From the UHGV virus genome UHGV-0311442: a stretch of DNA of 64,000 nt. One strand, given 5' to 3'. This document shows positions 31,079 to 62,541 of the stretch, one piece after another. The translations under genes and the position numbers were made by a program. Source of the stretch: a virus. Each line of letters begins with the position of its first letter. Position 1 is the first letter of the stretch. The notes below the pieces were generated by a model, which was given only the letters and a program-made list of their open reading frames with translations, was not told the origin of the DNA and did not search any database.

Positions 31079-32170
31079 TTATAACTTGTTCTCGATTATC
31101 TCCGCCAACTCCTTTATTGCCTCAATAAGTAGAGCTATTTGGGCAGAGTTAGAGACCGTTAAAACGTCCTCACCATTAGCGTCTTTATAAGTAGAAACTG
31201 CTTCAGGTAACACTTTTTGTAAGGTCTGTGCTACAACGCCAGCCTCACGATGAACATTAGTGGATTTAAAGTTCTCCTTTTTGTCGTATATTAAACCTGA
31301 CAATTCCTTTACCTTCTCCAATGCATTAGTTATTGGAGAGAAATTACTTTTCAGCCGGGCGTCAGATCGTATATAAACGTCGTTAAAGTTACCGTTCCCA
31401 CCACAAACCCAAGTACCGTCGTTTTGCAAATAAGCATTGGCATCGGTGCCATTATCAGTACGTGAGTTGTTTATCATGTAAAAGCCGAATTGATAGTTAC
31501 CTAAACCACCAACAAAAAATTTCCTATCAGCATGGTCTTGTCTTAACAATGCCTGAGCAGAACTGGTTCCTACCGGATTAAGACCAAAAATAACGTTATG
31601 GTCTCTCATGCTAATCCAAGAACCTGAGTTGCTGTTAATAGAATATCTATTTGCATAAACCCAAGTATTGGTTCTTATATCTCCGGTAACGTTGAGAGGT
31701 TTATTGCTTTGAACAGCCCCACTCGTAAAGCGTAAAACATGAGCATTATTGGCGTAAACATCTAGAACGCCATCCCCGTTCTGCTTAAAGCCGGTGTCAT
31801 TATCCCCTAAAACTATGGAGTTCCCACCTAAAGCATTGGCGGTTCCAATACCCAATGCTCCATTCAATTGACCGCCAGATAATGGCAACGCCCCAACGTC
31901 GGCAGCAGTTGGCTTGTTTCTCGTATTGTACACGCGACGCCAACCTGGTGAGTAAGTATCGCCGTTAAATACGTAGATAAACTCCGCATTAGTGAGTGCG
32001 CCGGAGACGCTCGTCGTTGTGGCGGTCGTTATACGGATCGTGTAGTTGTTTGTGCTATTGCCATTACTAATCACTTCTATAACGGCCCCAGCTAACGGAA
32101 TAGCCCCCACAACCCGTCTCGCTGTGTGGTATGTGCGCACTAGCGGCATAAGCCCATGCACAGCGAGCAA
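31079..32170 (-). CDS. Tail-fibre distal segment with C-terminal intramolecular-chaperone (peptidase S74-like) domain
   Basis: C-terminus SDARLKSNFSPITNALEKVKELSGLIYDKKE...VSNSAQIALLIEAIKELAEI matches the auto-cleaving chaperone domain of phage fibres and endosialidases; no RBS-supported start; overlaps the upstream fibre ORF by ~100 nt. Confidence 0.65.
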   Translation of the reverse strand: MLAVHGLMPLVRTYHTARRVVGAIPLAGAVIEVISNGNSTNNYTIRITTATTTSVSGALTNAEFIYVFNGDTYSPGWRRVYNTRNKPTAADVGALPLSGGQLNGALGIGTANALGGNSIVLGDNDTGFKQNGDGVLDVYANNAHVLRFTSGAVQSNKPLNVTGDIRTNTWVYANRYSINSNSGSWISMRDHNVIFGLNPVGTSSAQALLRQDHADRKFFVGGLGNYQFGFYMINNSRTDNGTDANAYLQNDGTWVCGGNGNFNDVYIRSDARLKSNFSPITNALEKVKELSGLIYDKKENFKSTNVHREAGVVAQTLQKVLPEAVSTYKDANGEDVLTVSNSAQIALLIEAIKELAEIIENKL

Positions 32171-35100
32171 CCCACGATCTTGTGGTAAATGCGCCGTTAT
32201 TTTTCAATAACGTCACTAGCTGTGCTGTAGTTATTGCAGCGCCATCAGCGCCAGTTTCTAACCAACCACTAGGTGATGCCGGGCAACCTATATCGGCAGG
32301 CCCTAACGATATATTTCTAGTGCCGTCAAATGCGATACCGTTAATGGTACGAGCTGTCTGCAACTTTGTGGCCGTGGCTGCGTTTCCGGTAGTCGACTGA
32401 TTACCAGTCTGGTTTACACCAGGTAAACTGATGTCTTTAGTACCATCAAAAGCCACACCGCCTATATTTCGCGCAGTCTGAAGTTTAGTCGCTGTCGCAG
32501 CATTACCTGACGTATTCTGGTTACCGGCTTGGTTAACCCCCGGTAAATTGATATCCCCAGTACCGTCAAAGGTAACGCCACCTATTCTTCGAGCGGTTTT
32601 CAGTTTCGTCGCGGTAGCGGCATTGCCGGTAGTATCTTGATTACCTGTGGCATTTACGCCAGGAATGCTGTCACGGGCAGTATAAACTTGTGCCCAATCT
32701 GACCACGGTGCATCGTTAGTGTCTCGACGACTACGAATATAAACTGGCGCGTGCGCACCGCTCGTGCCAGACCAACCGATTAACAGTTCACCTTCACCCA
32801 CTGCGGTAGAGCCACCCAAATGCAGCAAGTTACCATAAGCGGTCGGATAACCGTTATTGTAAACTTCGTACATCTGAATACCGGGTGTACCTTTGTTTGA
32901 ACCGGATAGAGCAGTAACCCGACCACGGCCCACCAGGGTGTTGATATTGATGTCAGCAGAACCATCGAATCTCACGCCGTTAATATTTCTGGCAGTTTGA
33001 AGTTTAGTGGCTGTACCAGCATTACCCGTGGTGTTTTGATTACCCTGTTGGTTAACACCTGGGAGGTTAACGTCGCCGCTACCATCGAAGGCGACCCCAC
33101 CAATTCTACGCGCCGTCTTTAATTTAGTGGCGGTTGAAGCGTTGCCTGTTAACTCACCTGCTAACCCTTTTGCAAAGGTCTGTTTTTCTGCCCAGGTGTG
33201 CGAAGCGCTCAATACAGGCATCTGCCGTGGAGTAATAGTACGGTTACCTGGATTACCCGCAAGGCGAACAGCAAAGAATCGATAGTTGGCGGTAGACACT
33301 GTACTACGCCAAACCAACATACTCCGACCTGAGGATGCGCCATCTGATGGACCAACCAGAATGCTAACTAAGTTACCGTCAATAACACCCCAATCCATTC
33401 CCGCAGGAATGTTTTTCATGGTGTTAAGTGGTGTACAGATTAACTCGCCCGGTTTAAAGTCATAGGTTTGCCAGTCTAAAGGATCAACATTCGCGCGTTC
33501 ACCGCCGATACCTAATACCAACGGAAGCGAATACGATGTGAAAACCTCACGCCAGTCACTCCAAGCGTTACCCGTACGGATACGTTGGAATTTACGACCT
33601 TTAGTTTCTGCACCCGTACCGTATGTAGTATAATTCTGTTCGACCCCTGTACCGTCTAAGCGTAAGGTAACTTCACAAACGCCTAATATGGTTTCGCCAG
33701 AAGAACCGGTAAGTGGGCCGTTAGTTGCCTCACCAGTAACACTGAAACGACCCGGTTTAACGAGATCGTTAAAATTGGCTTTAAAGAAAGCACCGTCAGT
33801 CTGATAACCAACCTGAATCCAATCTTCCCATTGTGGGTTTGATGAATCCCACGTTGCAGTCAAACCACGGACATACATTGTACCACGACGCGTAGTGTAT
33901 CGCTGCAACCGTCCGAAAAGACCACCTTCCATTACTTCTAGTACGCCTTGCGCACCACCACCTTCTTCAGGGTAATGTCTGCTAAACACAGCCAGCGAAC
34001 TGCTTGAGTTTCGCCAGTTACCCATATGCTCAGCGCCACCCAGAGAGTTCAAGTCTATAGAGGTAGATAACGGACGTACACCAGTAGTTACCATTCTCCA
34101 CGGTGACCAGGGTCCATTGGCACCATTCCACGCACCTGACAACATACGGTTGTACACGTTACCATTACGACAGGTAAAACGTTGCGCACCGCTATAATTA
34201 CCGGCTTTATACACTTCCAGATAACCGACCGCACCGTCTTCTGGGAAGTGTTTTGCCATCGACGCATTGGTTGATGTCGACTTAGCCCACGTTCCTGTGT
34301 AATTGGCATCTGGAGCAAATGTGTTAATATCAGCATCTACAGGCATTTCGCCACGGAAACGCAGATAGGTATCAGGAGATAGGCCGATGTTTCGAGCAAA
34401 AGTTTCTTTATCTGGGATATCAGCGCCGTTAGAGTTTTTCTGTAACGCACCATTCGCTTTATCTACGGTGGTTCTTAATCCCAAGAAATTGATGATATCC
34501 GCAGTTGACCCTTTCGCTAACAAGGATCTGGCCGTTTCTGTAAAATCCGTTAATCCGACATTATTACTGCCGGTGAAATACATGAGTTTGTTTGCCGCTG
34601 TGGTGACTGCGGCAATAGCGGTGAGTAACGGACTGAGAGGTTGTTTCTGCGCAAGCTCCTCAGTAATCGTTGTTGCGAAGTTAGGGTCATTACCTAACGC
34701 CTCAGCTAATTCCGCTAAGGTATTTAGCGTCTCGGGTGAAGAACCAACCAATTCCGCGATTGCGTCACGCACCCAGGACGTTGTGGAGATACTCGTGTCG
34801 TTCGAGTCCTTCGGCGGTTTTGGGGATGTCGGCTTACCCGTAAAATTCGGCGAATGTTTATTGGCTTTTAACTGTAATTCGTCGTTCAGCTGTTTAACCG
34901 TGGACGGTGTGGCGGCCTCAGTCACAGATTCGCTAGTCAGTGTATTGTTAAGTTTAACAATGCCTTTACCGGTTGTAGTAGCGTCAACTAAACCCTGTGC
35001 AGCGATTTTCTCCGCACGTAGGGCGGCTGATTCCGATCGCGTTGCTGCACCTTCTGAACTTTCCTTATCTTTCGTGACCTGTGCAGCAATCTTCTCCACT

Positions 35101-35639
35101 GCGCCTTTACTGGCCTCAACTGAAGCCGCAGTATTTTCAACGCTGGTAGCCGTCTGTTGAACTTGTCCGGCCTGTTGCGTAACCGTTTCTGCTTTCTTAG
35201 TTACATCAGCCGCTGCAGCCGTCACCGATTGTTCGCTTGTAGCGATAGCTTGAGCTTTCTCATTTACCGACTGTAATACACTATCTACGGCAGTTTTCGC
35301 GGCTAAAACTTCAGCGTGTTTTTTGCTAACCTCAGCAGTTTTAGTGGCAACGGTTCCCGCTTGCTCGCTAACTGTGGAAGCTAACGTGTCAGTTTGTTGC
35401 TTCGCTGTTTCTGCTAAGTCTTTTGCTTGTGTGGCTTCTGTTGCAGACTGTTGCGATTTGGCCGCCGCCGTTTGTGCGTCAGCAACCGCGTTTCTGACGG
35501 TGTCAATATCCGCAACAATCTCGCGGACAGGTAACTGATAATCCCTTTCGTCTTTCGAAAAAAGTAAAACGCCTTCACCGATATCCCCGGTGTATGGACG
35601 TAAATCGTGTAAACGAATTTTCTTTACCGCTTTAGCCAT
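32067..35639 (-). CDS. Long tail fibre protein (1190 aa)
   Basis: N-terminal coiled coil; HSPNFTGKPTSP...TSWVRDAI side-fibre motif; five or more GNAxTATKLxTAR-IGGVxFDGSxDI repeats typical of myovirus tail fibres. Confidence 0.8.
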   Translation of the reverse strand: MAKAVKKIRLHDLRPYTGDIGEGVLLFSKDERDYQLPVREIVADIDTVRNAVADAQTAAAKSQQSATEATQAKDLAETAKQQTDTLASTVSEQAGTVATKTAEVSKKHAEVLAAKTAVDSVLQSVNEKAQAIATSEQSVTAAAADVTKKAETVTQQAGQVQQTATSVENTAASVEASKGAVEKIAAQVTKDKESSEGAATRSESAALRAEKIAAQGLVDATTTGKGIVKLNNTLTSESVTEAATPSTVKQLNDELQLKANKHSPNFTGKPTSPKPPKDSNDTSISTTSWVRDAIAELVGSSPETLNTLAELAEALGNDPNFATTITEELAQKQPLSPLLTAIAAVTTAANKLMYFTGSNNVGLTDFTETARSLLAKGSTADIINFLGLRTTVDKANGALQKNSNGADIPDKETFARNIGLSPDTYLRFRGEMPVDADINTFAPDANYTGTWAKSTSTNASMAKHFPEDGAVGYLEVYKAGNYSGAQRFTCRNGNVYNRMLSGAWNGANGPWSPWRMVTTGVRPLSTSIDLNSLGGAEHMGNWRNSSSSLAVFSRHYPEEGGGAQGVLEVMEGGLFGRLQRYTTRRGTMYVRGLTATWDSSNPQWEDWIQVGYQTDGAFFKANFNDLVKPGRFSVTGEATNGPLTGSSGETILGVCEVTLRLDGTGVEQNYTTYGTGAETKGRKFQRIRTGNAWSDWREVFTSYSLPLVLGIGGERANVDPLDWQTYDFKPGELICTPLNTMKNIPAGMDWGVIDGNLVSILVGPSDGASSGRSMLVWRSTVSTANYRFFAVRLAGNPGNRTITPRQMPVLSASHTWAEKQTFAKGLAGELTGNASTATKLKTARRIGGVAFDGSGDVNLPGVNQQGNQNTTGNAGTATKLQTARNINGVRFDGSADININTLVGRGRVTALSGSNKGTPGIQMYEVYNNGYPTAYGNLLHLGGSTAVGEGELLIGWSGTSGAHAPVYIRSRRDTNDAPWSDWAQVYTARDSIPGVNATGNQDTTGNAATATKLKTARRIGGVTFDGTGDINLPGVNQAGNQNTSGNAATATKLQTARNIGGVAFDGTKDISLPGVNQTGNQSTTGNAATATKLQTARTINGIAFDGTRNISLGPADIGCPASPSGWLETGADGAAITTAQLVTLLKNNGAFTTRSWVARCAWAYAASAHIPHSETGCGGYSVSWGRYRSD

Positions 35640-57263: not shown

Positions 57264-59447
57264 TCACTTAGGTAGCTGGTCTAACGTAAACCCTTCGAGA
57301 TCGTTAATTTTCACCTGTTCGTTTAACGCCCAGTCGTCAAGTGAAGACTTGACCTTAACAACCCCGGTGGTCGGTTCATTAATATCCACCACGACTTGCT
57401 GATTCACTCTCACACGGATACCCATGTAAATGTTCATCCGTAGTTTGATGTGTTGCGGCATGGACAACTCTTTAATCACCGGCGCAGCGGGAAGCACTTT
57501 GTCCGTCGTCATGTGTTGATGTCGCGTAACTGACTGTACGCCTAAGAGAGGTTCAATGATGGTAACTGTACCCTCCCCACTCATAGGGATATCCCCTAAG
57601 ATCGGACAAAGCGGGTCCATAACGTCGTAAGAATCTGACCCCATCCGCGCAGCAAAATGTACGGTATACGACGAAAGCTTGGTCATCAATCGAACCATCG
57701 CGCGCTGTATTTCAGATTGCGAAATGGTTGCACGCGTTTCAAGGTTTGTTGCGGTGTTCAATGCATCGACTGCAATATCTTGCCACGTCTCTGCAGAGAC
57801 CAACGTATAGTCTAACCCAAAGGTCTTAAAGAACTCGTCGTAGTTACGATACTTTAACTTTAAATCACAGCGATAATCGCGATAATGGTAATCGAACAGC
57901 ATTAAACCCGCAGCACGATCGGGAATCTTACGGCGGTTTTGGCTGTAACGCCAACGGCGTCGCTTCTGTAAGATAATTTCATTAATCGTATCGTAAAGTT
58001 CGTCGGCACTGAGAATGGTCCCGACTACCTCGGTGTGGGTGTCGGTGTAGTAGTTAATCAGCGCATCGAAACGGTGTTCCCAACTCGGGATAAGATGTTG
58101 TTCCATTTCATCGAAGGGCACCCAACGTTTAATCAACACATCAAAAACGTTAAATACGGGGATTTCTTCAAGGGCAACATCGGAGTAACCTTTATACGCC
58201 GCGTACAAAAACAGTGCCAACAGTTCTTTCGAACTTAACTTTAATGTATCGCCGTTCGTTGGGTTAAGAATCTCGTGGTAGATGTTGTATTTTCCCTTCG
58301 CTACCAAATGTACCCATTCATTAAAGAGGTTATGTGTGTATTCAAAACGCTCAATAGCTTCTGGGTCAACGGCGGTTACTTCTACGAGCTTCGTCGTTAA
58401 GTTAGGATATTGTGTCAGACTCAGTCGCGTGTCTAAGTCTTCTTGGTACTCTGGTTCGTACGCCGGGTTGTTATACGCTAACCCCACCTCTTTTTGGATT
58501 ATGTCCGTAGTGGTAACAATATCCAAATCGCGTCCAGAGTCTTTCTCTGTGTAGTTTAAAGATTGCTGATAACCGATAGGCAACGGTGTTAAGGTTGAAT
58601 CGTCATCATCTTTCGGTTCGTGAATCTGCTGCGCAACATTATACCCAACCGCAGGCATTCCCCAGCCTGTCAGTAGCGCATCGATTTGCCAATCGAAGAT
58701 CTCCTCTTTCCCTGAATTGCGTTCCCAGTATCGAATATTTCGATAAAGAATGAATTTTTGTTTCTGAGTCAGGTACGGCATAAACTCATGCAGTTCCTGG
58801 TGCGAAGCTAAAAATTCGGTAACGAAGAAAGAGTGTGTTTCTGTCGTATGCTGTAAAGAAGAACGAATATAACCAATTATGCCCGGTAGCTGCGGAAACA
58901 ACATGCAGTAGAAAGCTAACACAAACGCATCGTTGTGGACCTTCCAACCCTCAGCCATGTACCGGACGTGGGCTGCACGAATTCTCGCTTCCAGTCGGCT
59001 AATCAATGACGTCTCTTGTGATTCTACTAACGAACTGTCGTAGTACAAAATAGAACAATCGTCTACACGTAACGCGTAATTTAAATCGATTGGCGTAAAG
59101 ACGCCGCGAATATAAACCGCGTATTCGGGATAAGTTGCGATCAACGCCTCGATATACTCGACATTCGAACGAAAAACGTTAGAGGTCTTTTTATGACGGG
59201 ACAGGTTGGCTGTCGTTAATTCTATCTGCTCTTGCGTGTCGAGCGACGTGATGTAAATGGGTTTATCCATTTCGTGACGTTGTCCTGCTAAATGCAGGTA
59301 GTATCGCCACGTACTACGGTTATCGGAAACGAAACCGCCGTTCTCGGTTATTGCCAGATTCATCTGTTGTGCGATTGATTCTGATTTAATAATCAGCGAT
59401 TTCGCCAACGCGATGTTCTGATCACGAAATATGTTAAATCTCTGCAT
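57264..59447 (-). CDS. Hypothetical large protein (~727 aa), possibly virion structural
   Basis: ATG at 59447 (ORF-track TTG at 59459); 11 nt from the divergent plus-strand gene. Confidence 0.65.
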   Translation of the reverse strand: MQRFNIFRDQNIALAKSLIIKSESIAQQMNLAITENGGFVSDNRSTWRYYLHLAGQRHEMDKPIYITSLDTQEQIELTTANLSRHKKTSNVFRSNVEYIEALIATYPEYAVYIRGVFTPIDLNYALRVDDCSILYYDSSLVESQETSLISRLEARIRAAHVRYMAEGWKVHNDAFVLAFYCMLFPQLPGIIGYIRSSLQHTTETHSFFVTEFLASHQELHEFMPYLTQKQKFILYRNIRYWERNSGKEEIFDWQIDALLTGWGMPAVGYNVAQQIHEPKDDDDSTLTPLPIGYQQSLNYTEKDSGRDLDIVTTTDIIQKEVGLAYNNPAYEPEYQEDLDTRLSLTQYPNLTTKLVEVTAVDPEAIERFEYTHNLFNEWVHLVAKGKYNIYHEILNPTNGDTLKLSSKELLALFLYAAYKGYSDVALEEIPVFNVFDVLIKRWVPFDEMEQHLIPSWEHRFDALINYYTDTHTEVVGTILSADELYDTINEIILQKRRRWRYSQNRRKIPDRAAGLMLFDYHYRDYRCDLKLKYRNYDEFFKTFGLDYTLVSAETWQDIAVDALNTATNLETRATISQSEIQRAMVRLMTKLSSYTVHFAARMGSDSYDVMDPLCPILGDIPMSGEGTVTIIEPLLGVQSVTRHQHMTTDKVLPAAPVIKELSMPQHIKLRMNIYMGIRVRVNQQVVVDINEPTTGVVKVKSSLDDWALNEQVKINDLEGFTLDQLPK

Positions 59448-59458
59448 CGGAGACCCCA

Positions 59459-62176
59459 ATGGACGATATTAGTAAATTAACGGGCGACCCCGCCGTAGCT
59501 GCAATTCTTCGTAAAACTACGGGCCCAGCACCCCAGCAACAACGCGGTACGCGTAGCGAGGGTGGTTCTACGCCAACACGTCAGGAACTTGCAGGAATTG
59601 TAAGTTCGCGTATTCGTACTATCAAAAATGCGGAACGTATCTTTGATGCGTTACCTGAACTCGAAACGATTGTTACCATTGCAACTTCGAGCTTGCTGTC
59701 GACAAAAGACTTAATCAACACCACGTTGATTTACGACAACATCGCAGACATTCCAATTGACTTACGCAATGACCTACTGACACCAACGCGTGATTATCAT
59801 GATAACGTACGTCAATTACCTAAGAAATTATATCAGTGGATTTACGACGCGTTAAAAACAAAAGGCGCAAGTCCAGTGATGATAATCTCGGACAACGGAT
59901 TTGACCAGTTGTTCGGTTTAGACGCCAAAGTCGCTACCGAGTCCGTACGTCGTTCTCAAGCTGCCTTTTTCGAAGACCAGCTCGGTATTCTCGGCCCAAT
60001 CAACGGGCAAGAAGACGGGCAACGCGTAGGTGTGGAATCTATACTGAGTCGTGTTCGTGGCCCTGTTAAAGGACCACAGTCGCTGAAAATCAATTTCAGT
60101 AACCACGATAAGATGTTCTCAGATAAGTTCGAAATGGACATCTCGATCACCGACAACCCACGTATCACGTTACTACCCCATGCTTATCGTCGAATCGCTC
60201 ATGAGAACGCACGTACTGGTCTCTACGGCCAATTAGAGCAAGCCGCATATGAAAAGCCTGCCACACCGACAGGTGCTACGCCGTATGAAGTTAATCAACA
60301 GTTTAACGATCGTCAGCGTGACGCGGCTGAAAAAGGCTTCATTAACTTAGGCGATCTGAACGAAGCGTACAAAGGTACACCAAAAACTCAGACTTATGGT
60401 GATATTCCGATTATTTCGATGAATGAAAACAACCAAATCGAATATTTCGAATGTCTATTGCCTGCTGAGTCTACCGCACCGTTGGTTATCGGCGACGACG
60501 TTCGTAACCCTATTGGGTTTCTGACCATTATTGACGATATGGGTAACTTCATCAACTCACGTTCTTCACTTTACGGGGACGCGAACTTTATGAACTACCT
60601 TAATAACGATGGCATGACGGACAGTATTATCAACCGCTCTAATTTAGGTTTGGGTAATACCTCTCGTATAACGCCAGAGATCGCCAACCGTTTAAGTGCC
60701 CGTTGTAGCGAGATTGCTGAGAACGAATTTACCCGTGCGTTAAGCCAGGCATTGGGTGGAGCTGAAATCAGCATGAAAATTACCGAAACTTTCGGTCGTA
60801 TTCTGCTGGCACGTCACCTCGCAAAACGTCACACACAGGTTGTCTATATCCCGGCTAATAACTTGTGCTACTTTGCAACGGACTTTAACGAAGATGGTAT
60901 TGGGGTGTCTATCACCGAACGTTCCTTTATCATCTCTACGGTCAGGATGGCACTGTTGTTCGCAACGATGAACTCCTCAGTGTTGAACTCAGCACGTCAC
61001 ATGCAATACGACATTGAGTTATCGCCAGACGATATGAACGGTCAGAAAACGGTTGACCAAGTTAAATCAGATATTCTCAACTCCTATAACCGTCGTTTAC
61101 CGATGTGGGGTGATATCAATGACGCTTGGTCAATGGGGGCTAATGCCGGGATTGCATTTAACGTGACGGGTAACGAATACTACGCCAGTCATAAAGTGTC
61201 GGTTTCGGACACAACGCCTGAGTATAAAGTGCCCGATCAACAAATCGATGAAAACTTACTCCGTCGTACTTGTCACATCGCGTGTGTAGACCCGGATCTT
61301 GTTTTGACGCCGGAAAACCTGGAATTTGCTTCACAGATTTATTCCAAGTCACTGCTGGTGACTCAGCAAATCGTGAAAAAACAAGAAATTCTGTCTACGC
61401 CGTTAACACGCTACGTGACAAACAGTTTGCAAGCCTCTCCTAAGTTACAAGCAGAGCTGATTCGTGTTATCGTTGAATATATTCGCAATCAAAATCCTAA
61501 TGTAACAGGTGAAGACTTGACCAAACAAACGTCAGAGTATCTGGCGAAGTTCATCAATGGCATGAAGGTCACCTTACCACCACCAGACACATCAGCTTCT
61601 TCTTCACAAGCGGATCTGTTTGATAAACGCTATGAGTTCATTGAGAAACTGGCGGATCTGGTTGTTACCGACGATATTTCGAATATGCTTCAGAATGAAG
61701 GTATCGAAATGCAGCCTGATGATCTCAAGACGATGATTAAATCGTTCTATACGCGTAACTGGCTACGCAATCAGGGCATCGAAACCGATCTGTTTGATTT
61801 GATCTACGACGAAGATAAGCGTGGTGAAAACGTCAAGATGATTTCTGATGAAATCGCAGCAGCATCGAAGACGCTGATTCAGTTAGCTAAGCGAACAACA
61901 GGTAAAGTTGAAACCTTAGCAAAAGCGGCTGATTTGAATCCTGAGGACGCCAATAGCTTCGGCGGGGGTAGCGACTTCGGTGGCGGCTCTGAAGACGACG
62001 GTGGCTTAGGGGGCGATGAGGACTTAGGTGGCGACGATATGGGCGGTGATGAAGACTTGGACATGTCTGATGATGAAACGACGGAAACCGATACGACAAC
62101 GGAAGAAGACGTTTCTGCTGAAGACACAGACGAGACGGATACCGGTACAGACGACAACGCCGACGAAACTCTCTAA
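59459..62176 (+). CDS. Large protein (905 aa) with poly-acidic Gly/Asp/Glu/Thr C-terminal tail
   Basis: Long ORF; last ~90 aa are GGGSDFGGGSEDDGGLGGDEDLGGDDMGGDEDLDMSDDETTETDTTTEEDVSAEDTDETD; bidirectional terminator follows. Confidence 0.75.
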   Translation: MDDISKLTGDPAVAAILRKTTGPAPQQQRGTRSEGGSTPTRQELAGIVSSRIRTIKNAERIFDALPELETIVTIATSSLLSTKDLINTTLIYDNIADIPIDLRNDLLTPTRDYHDNVRQLPKKLYQWIYDALKTKGASPVMIISDNGFDQLFGLDAKVATESVRRSQAAFFEDQLGILGPINGQEDGQRVGVESILSRVRGPVKGPQSLKINFSNHDKMFSDKFEMDISITDNPRITLLPHAYRRIAHENARTGLYGQLEQAAYEKPATPTGATPYEVNQQFNDRQRDAAEKGFINLGDLNEAYKGTPKTQTYGDIPIISMNENNQIEYFECLLPAESTAPLVIGDDVRNPIGFLTIIDDMGNFINSRSSLYGDANFMNYLNNDGMTDSIINRSNLGLGNTSRITPEIANRLSARCSEIAENEFTRALSQALGGAEISMKITETFGRILLARHLAKRHTQVVYIPANNLCYFATDFNEDGIGVSITERSFIISTVRMALLFATMNSSVLNSARHMQYDIELSPDDMNGQKTVDQVKSDILNSYNRRLPMWGDINDAWSMGANAGIAFNVTGNEYYASHKVSVSDTTPEYKVPDQQIDENLLRRTCHIACVDPDLVLTPENLEFASQIYSKSLLVTQQIVKKQEILSTPLTRYVTNSLQASPKLQAELIRVIVEYIRNQNPNVTGEDLTKQTSEYLAKFINGMKVTLPPPDTSASSSQADLFDKRYEFIEKLADLVVTDDISNMLQNEGIEMQPDDLKTMIKSFYTRNWLRNQGIETDLFDLIYDEDKRGENVKMISDEIAAASKTLIQLAKRTTGKVETLAKAADLNPEDANSFGGGSDFGGGSEDDGGLGGDEDLGGDDMGGDEDLDMSDDETTETDTTTEEDVSAEDTDETDTGTDDNADETL

Positions 62177-62202
62177 ATAGCAAAAAAAATAATTCGAGCT
62201 TA

Positions 62203-62243
62203 CTCCGACCCTTCTGGGGTCGGAGTGGCTTTTCTTTTTTTTC
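62203..62243. terminator. Bidirectional rho-independent terminator
   Basis: Stem ctccgaccc / gggtcggag flanked by an A-run upstream and T-run downstream. Confidence 0.6.
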
Positions 62244-62541
62244 ACCACGCTATCTCGTCTTTCTTAATAGCAAGGTCTAGCATCACTCCTATTGCTAAGG
62301 GATCGTTATCGTACGCCGTCAGTTTCGCTAACAGTTCCGACTGACCTGATTTCTTGACGGCTTTCAGTAGCTCATTACGGGCATTATAGTAGATAAGCCA
62401 GTATCTACCGTGATTGATTTTGGTGTTTGAATGCTCTAATAAGTAGCGATTAAACTCCATGGTTGCTTTGGTTTCAGGTAACTCAAAACGAAAACGTGGG
62501 CTACGTTCGTAGTCTACATTAATAACGACATATTTAATCAT
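62242..62541 (-). CDS. Hypothetical protein
   Basis: ORF. Confidence 0.55.
   Translation of the reverse strand: MIKYVVINVDYERSPRFRFELPETKATMEFNRYLLEHSNTKINHGRYWLIYYNARNELLKAVKKSGQSELLAKLTAYDNDPLAIGVMLDLAIKKDEIAW

Follow-up and report, generated by a model that had tools for sequence, protein, structure and literature searches.

The window studied here, a stretch of 64,000 nucleotides (nt) from the virus genome UHGV-0311442, encodes a 905-amino-acid (aa) protein, which is the portal (the DNA entry/exit ring) of a phiKZ/SPN3US-like jumbo phage and which ends with a strongly acidic, 82-residue tail predicted to be intrinsically disordered. Sequence comparisons indicate that a long acidic disordered tail is a trait of the phiKZ-like portal family. 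The architecture of this tail persists while its sequence drifts: it comprises a Gly-rich, acidic-hydrophobic proximal part, an acidic distal part and a hydrophobic/Pro tip. We tentatively propose that the tail may act both as a docking leash and as a brush that repels DNA. The coordinates of the features are collected in Table 1.

Identification of the 905-aa Protein as a Jumbo Phage Portal

The open reading frame (ORF) of the 905-aa protein matches PHROG 3004 over its full length (residues 2-902, E = 0). The nearest phage records are those of the Erwinia phages phiEaH2 and Asesino and of the Salmonella SPN3US group, with 73-74% aa identity in tblastn over residues 1 to ~830. Four metagenomic relatives (91-98% identity) were found as well, on contigs not exceeding 226 kb (three of the four have 142-226 kb). 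Among proteins of solved structure, the sequence matches the portals of phiKZ (gp129; PDB 9xpe, E = 1.9e-41) and Goslar (gp36; PDB 11ed, E = 7e-26). The AlphaFold2 model of the monomer, generated from 49 homologues, is of moderate confidence (mean predicted local distance difference test (pLDDT) of 62.7; predicted template modelling score of 0.55). When it was submitted to Foldseek, the sole strong match was 9xpe_M (E = 6e-22, probability of 1.00), and the remaining matches were weak (E of at least 0.1) and nearly all portals. The model supports a portal fold with its wing, stem, clip and crown, and the Pfam search detected no domain in the portal protein or in its tail. By analogy with its homologues, the window portal would form a dodecamer at the unique vertex of the capsid. 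The other genes of the window encode virion structural proteins, tail fibres and one internal head protein. In itself, the portal gene is an unexceptional member of a well-known family of jumbo-phage portals, and these PHROG, PDB and Foldseek matches bear out one of the options of the initial annotation, which had listed some portal proteins among the possible bearers of such a tail.

The portals of SPN3US (gp81), phiEaH2, Asesino and SPAsTU, which are ~73% identical to the window portal over aa 1-830, belong to the same length class as the latter (904-920 aa). SPN3US gp81, which has been experimentally assigned as the portal, loses an N-terminal propeptide of 254 residues, and its sites of cleavage by gp245 were mapped experimentally to ATE-161 and AQE-254 (PMC5694885, PMC10052503). 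The A-x-E maturation sites of the SPN3US-type portals align with the window portal, in that ATE-161 and AHE-249 of the latter share alignment columns with ATE-161 and AQE-254 of the former. On the strength of this alignment, cleavage in the window phage would remove a propeptide of ~249 residues, leaving a mature portal with a predicted mass of ~72 kDa.

Composition and Disorder of the Acidic Tail

The initial annotation had placed a tail of about 90 residues at 61930..62176, i.e., from the last base of codon 824 to the stop codon. An acidic tail rich in G, D, E, T and S is indeed present, with a length of 82 residues (C-terminal sequence: ...NSFGGGSDFGGGSEDDGGLGGDEDLGGDDMGGDEDLDMSDDETTETDTTTEEDVSAEDTDETDTGTDDNADETL, up to the stop codon; ...AKAADLNPEDANSFGGGSDFGGGSEDDGGLGGDEDLGGDDMGGDEDLDMSDDETTETDTTTEEDVSAEDTDETDTGTDDNADETL). 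It is composed of 27% D, 18.5% G, 13.6% E, 13.6% T and 6% S. Together, these five amino acids account for 64 of the 82 tail residues (78%), as compared to 33% of the first 823 residues (binomial P = 1e-16), and D+E account for 33 of the 82 (40%), as compared to 13% in the rest of the protein (P = 9e-10). The tail has neither Lys nor Arg nor His (P = 4e-5), and it bears a net charge of −33. In the six frames of the whole window, no other 40-aa stretch comprises at least 40% D+E. The proximal sub-segment of the tail (aa 834-869) reads F-GGG-SD-F-GGG-SEDDGG-L-GGDED-L-GGDD-M-GGDED-L-D-M.

In the AlphaFold2 model, a final helix spanning residues 788-823 is followed by residues 824-905, with a pLDDT of 26-29 and no secondary structure; the structure and disorder prediction suggested by the initial annotation as a check came out as a disordered tail. 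This prediction bears on two other options of that annotation, namely a DNA mimic and an ejected internal protein, neither of which fits the present findings. Acidic tails do occur on DNA-mimic and ejected internal proteins, and the carboxylate density is high here. For the protein as a whole, the role of a DNA mimic or of an ejected protein of the head interior is nevertheless extremely improbable: ~820 of its residues are homologous to structurally solved portal dodecamers, portals are not ejected, and the tail lacks a predicted fold on which a DNA-like pattern of charges could be displayed. A mimic of the Ocr/ArdA type, i.e., a folded carboxylate scaffold resembling B-DNA, was rejected on the basis of the low pLDDT, the lack of secondary structure and the lack of a Pfam match. 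An ejected internal head or inner-body protein was rejected as well, the protein being the portal itself, a fixed structural component of the virion.

At the DNA level, the tail-coding region is purine-rich (61.5%, versus 51% in the remainder of the portal gene), as initially annotated, and the low-complexity GA-rich repeat described along with it was not found. Tandem Repeats Finder returned 0 arrays at a minimum score of 30, and there are just two weak imperfect two-copy direct repeats, one of 45 nt (71%) and one of 18 nt (72%). As there is no repeat array, we attribute the purine bias to runs of GAN, GGN and ACN codons. Three ORFs overlap the tail DNA (61879-62183), two of them antisense and Ser/Pro-rich (92 and 98 aa), and one out-of-frame and Lys/Arg-rich (50 aa). 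They were rejected as genes, for they look like by-products of the GAN/GGN codon runs.

Conservation of the Tail across the Portal Family

The tail was found in all 49 full-length portal homologues (42-98% identity), in which it is 80-111 aa long (median 94), carries a net charge of −24 to −52 and always follows a conserved ...LAKR..GK.ET.AK helix. For more distant relatives, the tail-less core (residues 1-824) was used as the query of an exhaustive HMMER search, which yielded 1104 clusters (50% identity) at E ≤ 1e-3, and we analyzed the 137 full-length representatives present in the best 150 of them, which are 22-61% identical to the query. The last 70 aa of these representatives have a median D+E content of 36%, with at least 25% in 114 of the 137 and less than 20% in only four. 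An acidic tail (at least 20% D+E) is, thus, present in 133 of the 137. The absence from orthologues considered by the initial annotation, which would characterize an unconserved extension, is clearly contradicted by the closer and the distant set. Since the tblastn alignments to the close relatives stop at residues 822-834, the sequence of the tail itself is not conserved.

These data can be confronted with the view that the tail is a neutral stretch of low complexity without function, arising from slippage or from a drift in composition, which would account for its composition and for a sequence that is unalignable beyond ~75% core identity, as indicated by the end of the tblastn alignments. 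We regard this view as very improbable for the following reasons. First, the tail occurs in essentially every family member examined, within a narrow range of length and charge. Second, its length is constant among the relatives that are 91-98% identical. Third, the tail DNA has no repeat that could drive slippage. Fourth, its motifs and its tip are enriched in a non-random way, as described below.

Rare distant homologues (P0176, P0208, P0094 and P0125) possess very short tails or extra, non-acidic C-terminal extensions, with P0176 and P0208 among the short-tailed ones. The short tails (~15-20 aa) are still acidic with a Tyr at the end, and the short-tailed members retain an acidic stretch with an aromatic end (e.g., ...DDANSFY and ...DDFSFPDM). 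P0125 has a Pro/Ala-rich tail with repeated LDLD(D/Q)HL motifs. These rare short-tailed or extended homologues could act as natural experiments on the function of the tail.

Motif Architecture of the Tail beyond Its Charge

The enrichment of motifs was measured against within-tail shuffles, in 142 representatives (one per 50%-identity cluster). Three motifs (Φ standing for a hydrophobic residue) were found to be strongly enriched, namely [DE][DE]ΦxΦ[DEG] (42 occurrences versus 5.2 ± 2.3 in the shuffles; 8-fold), FGG (52 versus 9.2 ± 3.0; about 5-fold) and ΦGG[DEGS] (89 versus 18.3 ± 4.2; about 5-fold). The Phe content of the tails (2.5%) is close to that of the cores (3.3%), whereas the tail contents of Ile, Val, Tyr and Leu are 2.4- to 5-fold lower. 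The hydrophobic residues of the tails stand singly, with D/E favoured at position −2 and Gly at position +1 (z = 6.5 in both cases). Along the tail, Gly prevails in the proximal half and S/T/A in the distal deciles, and Pro and the hydrophobic residues peak in the last decile.

At the tip of the tail, a hydrophobic residue occurs in the last three positions of 37 of the 49 homologues (versus 14.5 ± 3.1 in the shuffles), and the very last residue is hydrophobic in 59 of the 142 representatives (versus 16.9 ± 4.0). Many of the tails end with ...DDDIPL, ...EEDIPQ, ...DFDLPV or ...PPVV. In pairs of 60-85% core identity, the hydrophobic positions align at 0.48, versus 0.30 in the shuffled-partner control, and the Pro positions align at 0.30 versus 0.13, whereas the D/E, G and S/T positions are barely above the control. 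The window tail fits this architecture, with its successive F-GGG, F-GGG, L-GG, L-GG, M-GG and L-D-M elements, its T/D/E-rich half and its ...DETL end.

Comparison with Other Portals and Other Acidic Tails

The SPN3US-type tails are acidic and Gly-rich (82-97 aa), and they start with ...GGFGGGF... after a common LAKR..G[KR].ETLAK helix. They cannot be aligned with the window tail, from which they differ by a TE/TEG-rich distal half and by their ends (...TTDDNPDNVL or ...DDDIPL), whereas the window tail displays a regular set of four Φ-GG-D/E units and a ...NADETL end. phiKZ gp129 and Goslar gp36, although just 17-25% identical to the window portal, have a homologous core and an acidic, G/S/T-rich tail with the same motifs (...GGYGDFGSDMDD... 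in phiKZ gp129, with a net charge of −27 over the last 80 aa, and ...SSDDFGGGDDFGDTDFD... in Goslar gp36). The distal tail is neither described nor discussed in the structural papers on phiKZ 9xpe and Goslar 11ed.

Outside of the jumbo phages, T4 gp20 (6208-7782 of L005) ends with ...PDQEQEDF, i.e., eight disordered, acidic residues with an aromatic tip (PMC4493910), and SPP1 gp6 (2334-3845 of L001) has an acidic, Gly-containing tail of ~35 aa (...LLDDEGGDDDLEEDDPNAG... / ...LLDDEGGDDDLEEDDP...; net charge of −12 over the last 40 aa). Both proteins share the portal architecture, with tails that are 2- to 10-fold shorter than the window tail, and Pfam revealed no detectable sequence homology between them and the window protein. 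The portals of T7 (gp8), P22 (gp1) and lambda (gpB) are devoid of an acidic tail. The long tail of the jumbo phages may have expanded from a short and more ancient acidic tip shared by the T4/SPP1-like portal lineage.

Other proteins combine a disordered linker, an acidic stretch and a hydrophobic or aromatic tip for protein docking, such as the E. coli single-stranded DNA-binding protein SSB (...DDDIPF) and T7 gp2.5. The ...DDDIPL, ...EEDIPQ, ...PDDIPL and ...DFDLPV ends of the orthologous portal tails resemble this SSB-type tip. The portals have no homology with SSB or T7 gp2.5, the host protein is entirely different, and the portal tail is far more acidic and contains internal Φ motifs. We take this resemblance as an analogy that may lead to a mechanism, and not as evidence of membership.

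Fate of the Tail in the Mature Virion

The tail might be a transient assembly propeptide, acting in the prohead (e.g., in a scaffold-like manner) before being cut by the prohead protease and expelled, as happens to propeptides at the N-termini of phiKZ-like head proteins. SPN3US gp81 undergoes A-x-E processing in its N-terminal part (PMC5694885, PMC10052503), and the tail holds five triplets of the phiKZ-type [SAG]-x-E motif (GSE-845, GDE-854, GDE-865, SAE-888 and ADE-903). The loss of the tail could have escaped notice, because it is devoid of K and R and is, therefore, invisible to tryptic proteomics. In the phiKZ 9xpe chain, only 633 of the 896 residues were modelled. We nevertheless consider such a propeptide to be unlikely, from the following lines of evidence. 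First, the conserved sequence where helix and tail meet, GK[VI]E-T[LV]AK, offers no A-x-E or [SAG]-x-E motif and has a K at P3 (third position ahead of the cut). Second, the sole strict A-x-E of the tail, ADE-903, is not conserved, and its cleavage would remove only two residues. Third, in SPN3US the propeptide is N-terminal in each of the eight substrates of the prohead protease (the protease itself not counted), and the way in which mature gp81 migrates on gels fits a mass of 72.3 kDa, as calculated with an intact C-terminus (PMC10052503, PMC5694885). Fourth, the Goslar virion model extends into the acidic region: its crown domain is given as residues 778-923 of 969 (bioRxiv 10.64898/2026.04.21.720040) and, by our count on the alignment, residue 923 already lies within this region, directly before FGGGDDFGDTDFD.

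Proposed Mechanism: Docking and DNA Repulsion at the Inner Mouth of the Portal

In all solved portals, the crown lies farther inside than any other part of the dodecamer, and it forms the top of the T4 and Goslar portals (PMC4493910; bioRxiv 10.64898/2026.04.21.720040). By analogy with these homologous structures, we propose that twelve tails, together bearing ~400 negative charges, would hang into the capsid lumen, where they would surround the internal opening of the DNA channel. At the time of procapsid nucleation, they would provide a multivalent docking platform at the portal, where the single Phe, Leu and Met residues embedded among Asp, Glu and Gly, along with the hydrophobic C-terminal tip, could capture basic or DNA-binding internal head proteins, with the scaffold, inner-body or ejection proteins as candidates. 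After packaging, the same polyanion would repel the DNA from the crown and the entrance of the channel. We put forward this dual role, i.e., an acidic-hydrophobic docking leash and a DNA-repelling brush, with reserve, as both functions are deduced. There is a precedent for its first half in SPP1, where the portal gp6 strongly binds the DNA-binding protein gp7, thereby targeting it to the interior of the procapsid (PMC6316719). Its second half builds on the account proposed for the acidic upper surface of the portals of T4 and other phages (PMC4493910).

The second half could also stand alone. A purely electrostatic and entropic brush would bind nothing specific, its ~400 charges and its chain entropy keeping the packaged DNA and the adjacent DNA strands off the crown and the mouth of the channel. 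Packaging, headful sensing and ejection would become easier, such a brush being in function a disordered counterpart of the barrel of the P22 portal. Such a brush, which is possible though rather doubtful as the sole function, agrees with the predicted disorder of the tail and with the fact that its net charge (−24 to −52) and its length (80-111 aa) are its most uniformly conserved properties, whereas its sequence is not conserved. It also agrees with the suggestion by the authors of the T4 portal structure that the negatively charged upper surface of portals avoids the binding of packaged DNA (PMC4493910). What it leaves unexplained is the retention of Phe, the 5- to 8-fold enrichment of the motifs, the conservation of the hydrophobic and Pro positions and the hydrophobic tip. 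As these motifs and the tip are conserved, we favour the dual role over the pure brush, which is itself compatible with docking as a second role of the same tail.

Several points weigh against the dual role. The shuffles used for the motif counts ignore kinship, so that the z-scores overstate independence (a bias partly eased by the use of one representative per cluster), and low-complexity tails align poorly, which makes the test of positional conservation approximate. The persistence of the tail in the mature virion is presumed, and no tail peptide was present in one SPN3US proteomics supplement, which is uninformative, as the tail is devoid of tryptic sites and peptide lists were perhaps not included. 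The AlphaFold2 model, a monomer, displays no docked conformation of the tail. In the parts of PMC6316719 that were accessible, the portion of SPP1 gp6 that binds gp7 is not specified. Finally, our literature searches for acidic portal tails turned up no mention of the tail of this portal family in the searchable papers. A paper on Avs5 was considered and set aside, as the portal is not the trigger there.

We also considered a bolder, fairly unlikely variant, in which the twelve tails would be DNA-mimicking leashes that hold, by their acidic-hydrophobic motifs, DNA-binding ejection proteins at the inner mouth of the portal, or that partly fill the wide channel before packaging. The proteins so held would be the virion RNA polymerase or inner-body components, and the portal would set the order in which proteins and DNA exit. 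A fully stretched chain of 82 aa would measure ~30 nm and exceed the ~12-nm height reported for the T4 portal assembly, so that a reach into or through the channel appears to be geometrically possible. If this variant were true, the portal tail would organize both the loading and the ejection of internal proteins in nucleus-forming jumbo phages.

Returning to the dual role, a portal-borne multivalent docking tail offers a concrete hypothesis for the way in which internal and ejected proteins, amounting to tens of megadaltons, are loaded in phiKZ-like phages and in which the inner body is assembled near the portal. If the tail were merely a DNA-repelling brush, it would be of local interest for the biophysics of packaging. 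In either case, it is a family-wide module that is invisible in the published cryo-electron microscopy models and to tryptic proteomics. The docking hypothesis is testable in two phages, as SPN3US has amber-mutant genetics and a genome-wide transposon mutagenesis exists for phiKZ. In the phiKZ transposon sequencing data, trimming leaves gp129 with 0 insertions, as compared to 18 single-read sites untrimmed; those neighbouring genes that trimming likewise leaves without insertions show the same single-read background, and the data carry no per-site coordinates.

Features of the Window and Neighbouring Genes

Table 1. Coordinates of the portal gene, its sub-segments and other features of the window.
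Feature	Coordinates	Strand	Basis or remarks
Portal protein gene, 905 aa	59459..62176	+	Orthologue of SPN3US gp81, phiKZ gp129 and Goslar gp36
Predicted N-terminal propeptide, aa 1-249	59459..60205	+	Contains ATE-161 and AHE-249, A-x-E motifs aligned with the prohead-protease sites of SPN3US gp81
Last crown helix, aa 788-823	61820..61927	+	AlphaFold2 helix 788-823; ends with the ...LIQLAKR..GK[VI]ET[LV]AK anchor (consensus of 49 homologues)
Polyanionic tail at the C-terminus, predicted to be disordered (aa 824-905; net charge of −33; K, R and H absent)	61928..62173	+	Composition, pLDDT, homologues
Proximal Gly-rich sub-segment, aa 834-869	61958..62065	+	Hydrophobic residues standing singly among acidic residues and Gly
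Distal Thr/Asp/Glu-rich sub-segment, aa 870-905	62066..62173	+	Hydrophobic tip ...NADETL
Intrinsic terminator hairpin, 13 bp (7 GC), with T-run	62200..62238	+	Terminator scan; 24 nt past the portal stop codon
731-aa gene, PHROG 3222	57264..59459	-	Divergent; listed TTG start on the same base as the portal ATG
NanS-like 9-O-acetyl-N-acetylneuraminate esterase, 712 aa	26659-28797	-	Matches to 3pt5 and 6yp6
Radical-SAM domain protein, 440 aa	11414-12736	+	PHROG 1802, E = 1e-114; among virion structural genes

Downstream of the portal gene, the 62183-62238 region comprises a run of eight A, then a GC-rich hairpin (62200-62228) and then the T-run. It looks like a bidirectional intrinsic terminator operating between the portal gene and a convergent gene of 99 aa (62242..62541, minus strand). 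Upstream, the divergent 731-aa gene probably starts at Met-5, since its PHROG match begins at residue 5. The two divergent genes are at most ~12 nt apart (59447-59459), which leaves no room for intergenic promoters between them; in phiKZ, 35 nt separate gp128 and gp129.

Farther away in the window, the 712-aa ORF matches the E. coli NanS/YjhS protein (3pt5, E = 1.2e-121) and the prophage protein NanS-p (6yp6, E = 5.5e-37), and it lies ~2.3 kb from the tail-fibre genes (31079..35639, minus strand). It was also considered as a candidate chimallin, and rejected as being a NanS-like esterase instead. An enzyme of this type, a sialate O-acetylesterase, could in a jumbo phage serve to modify receptors or be of host origin.

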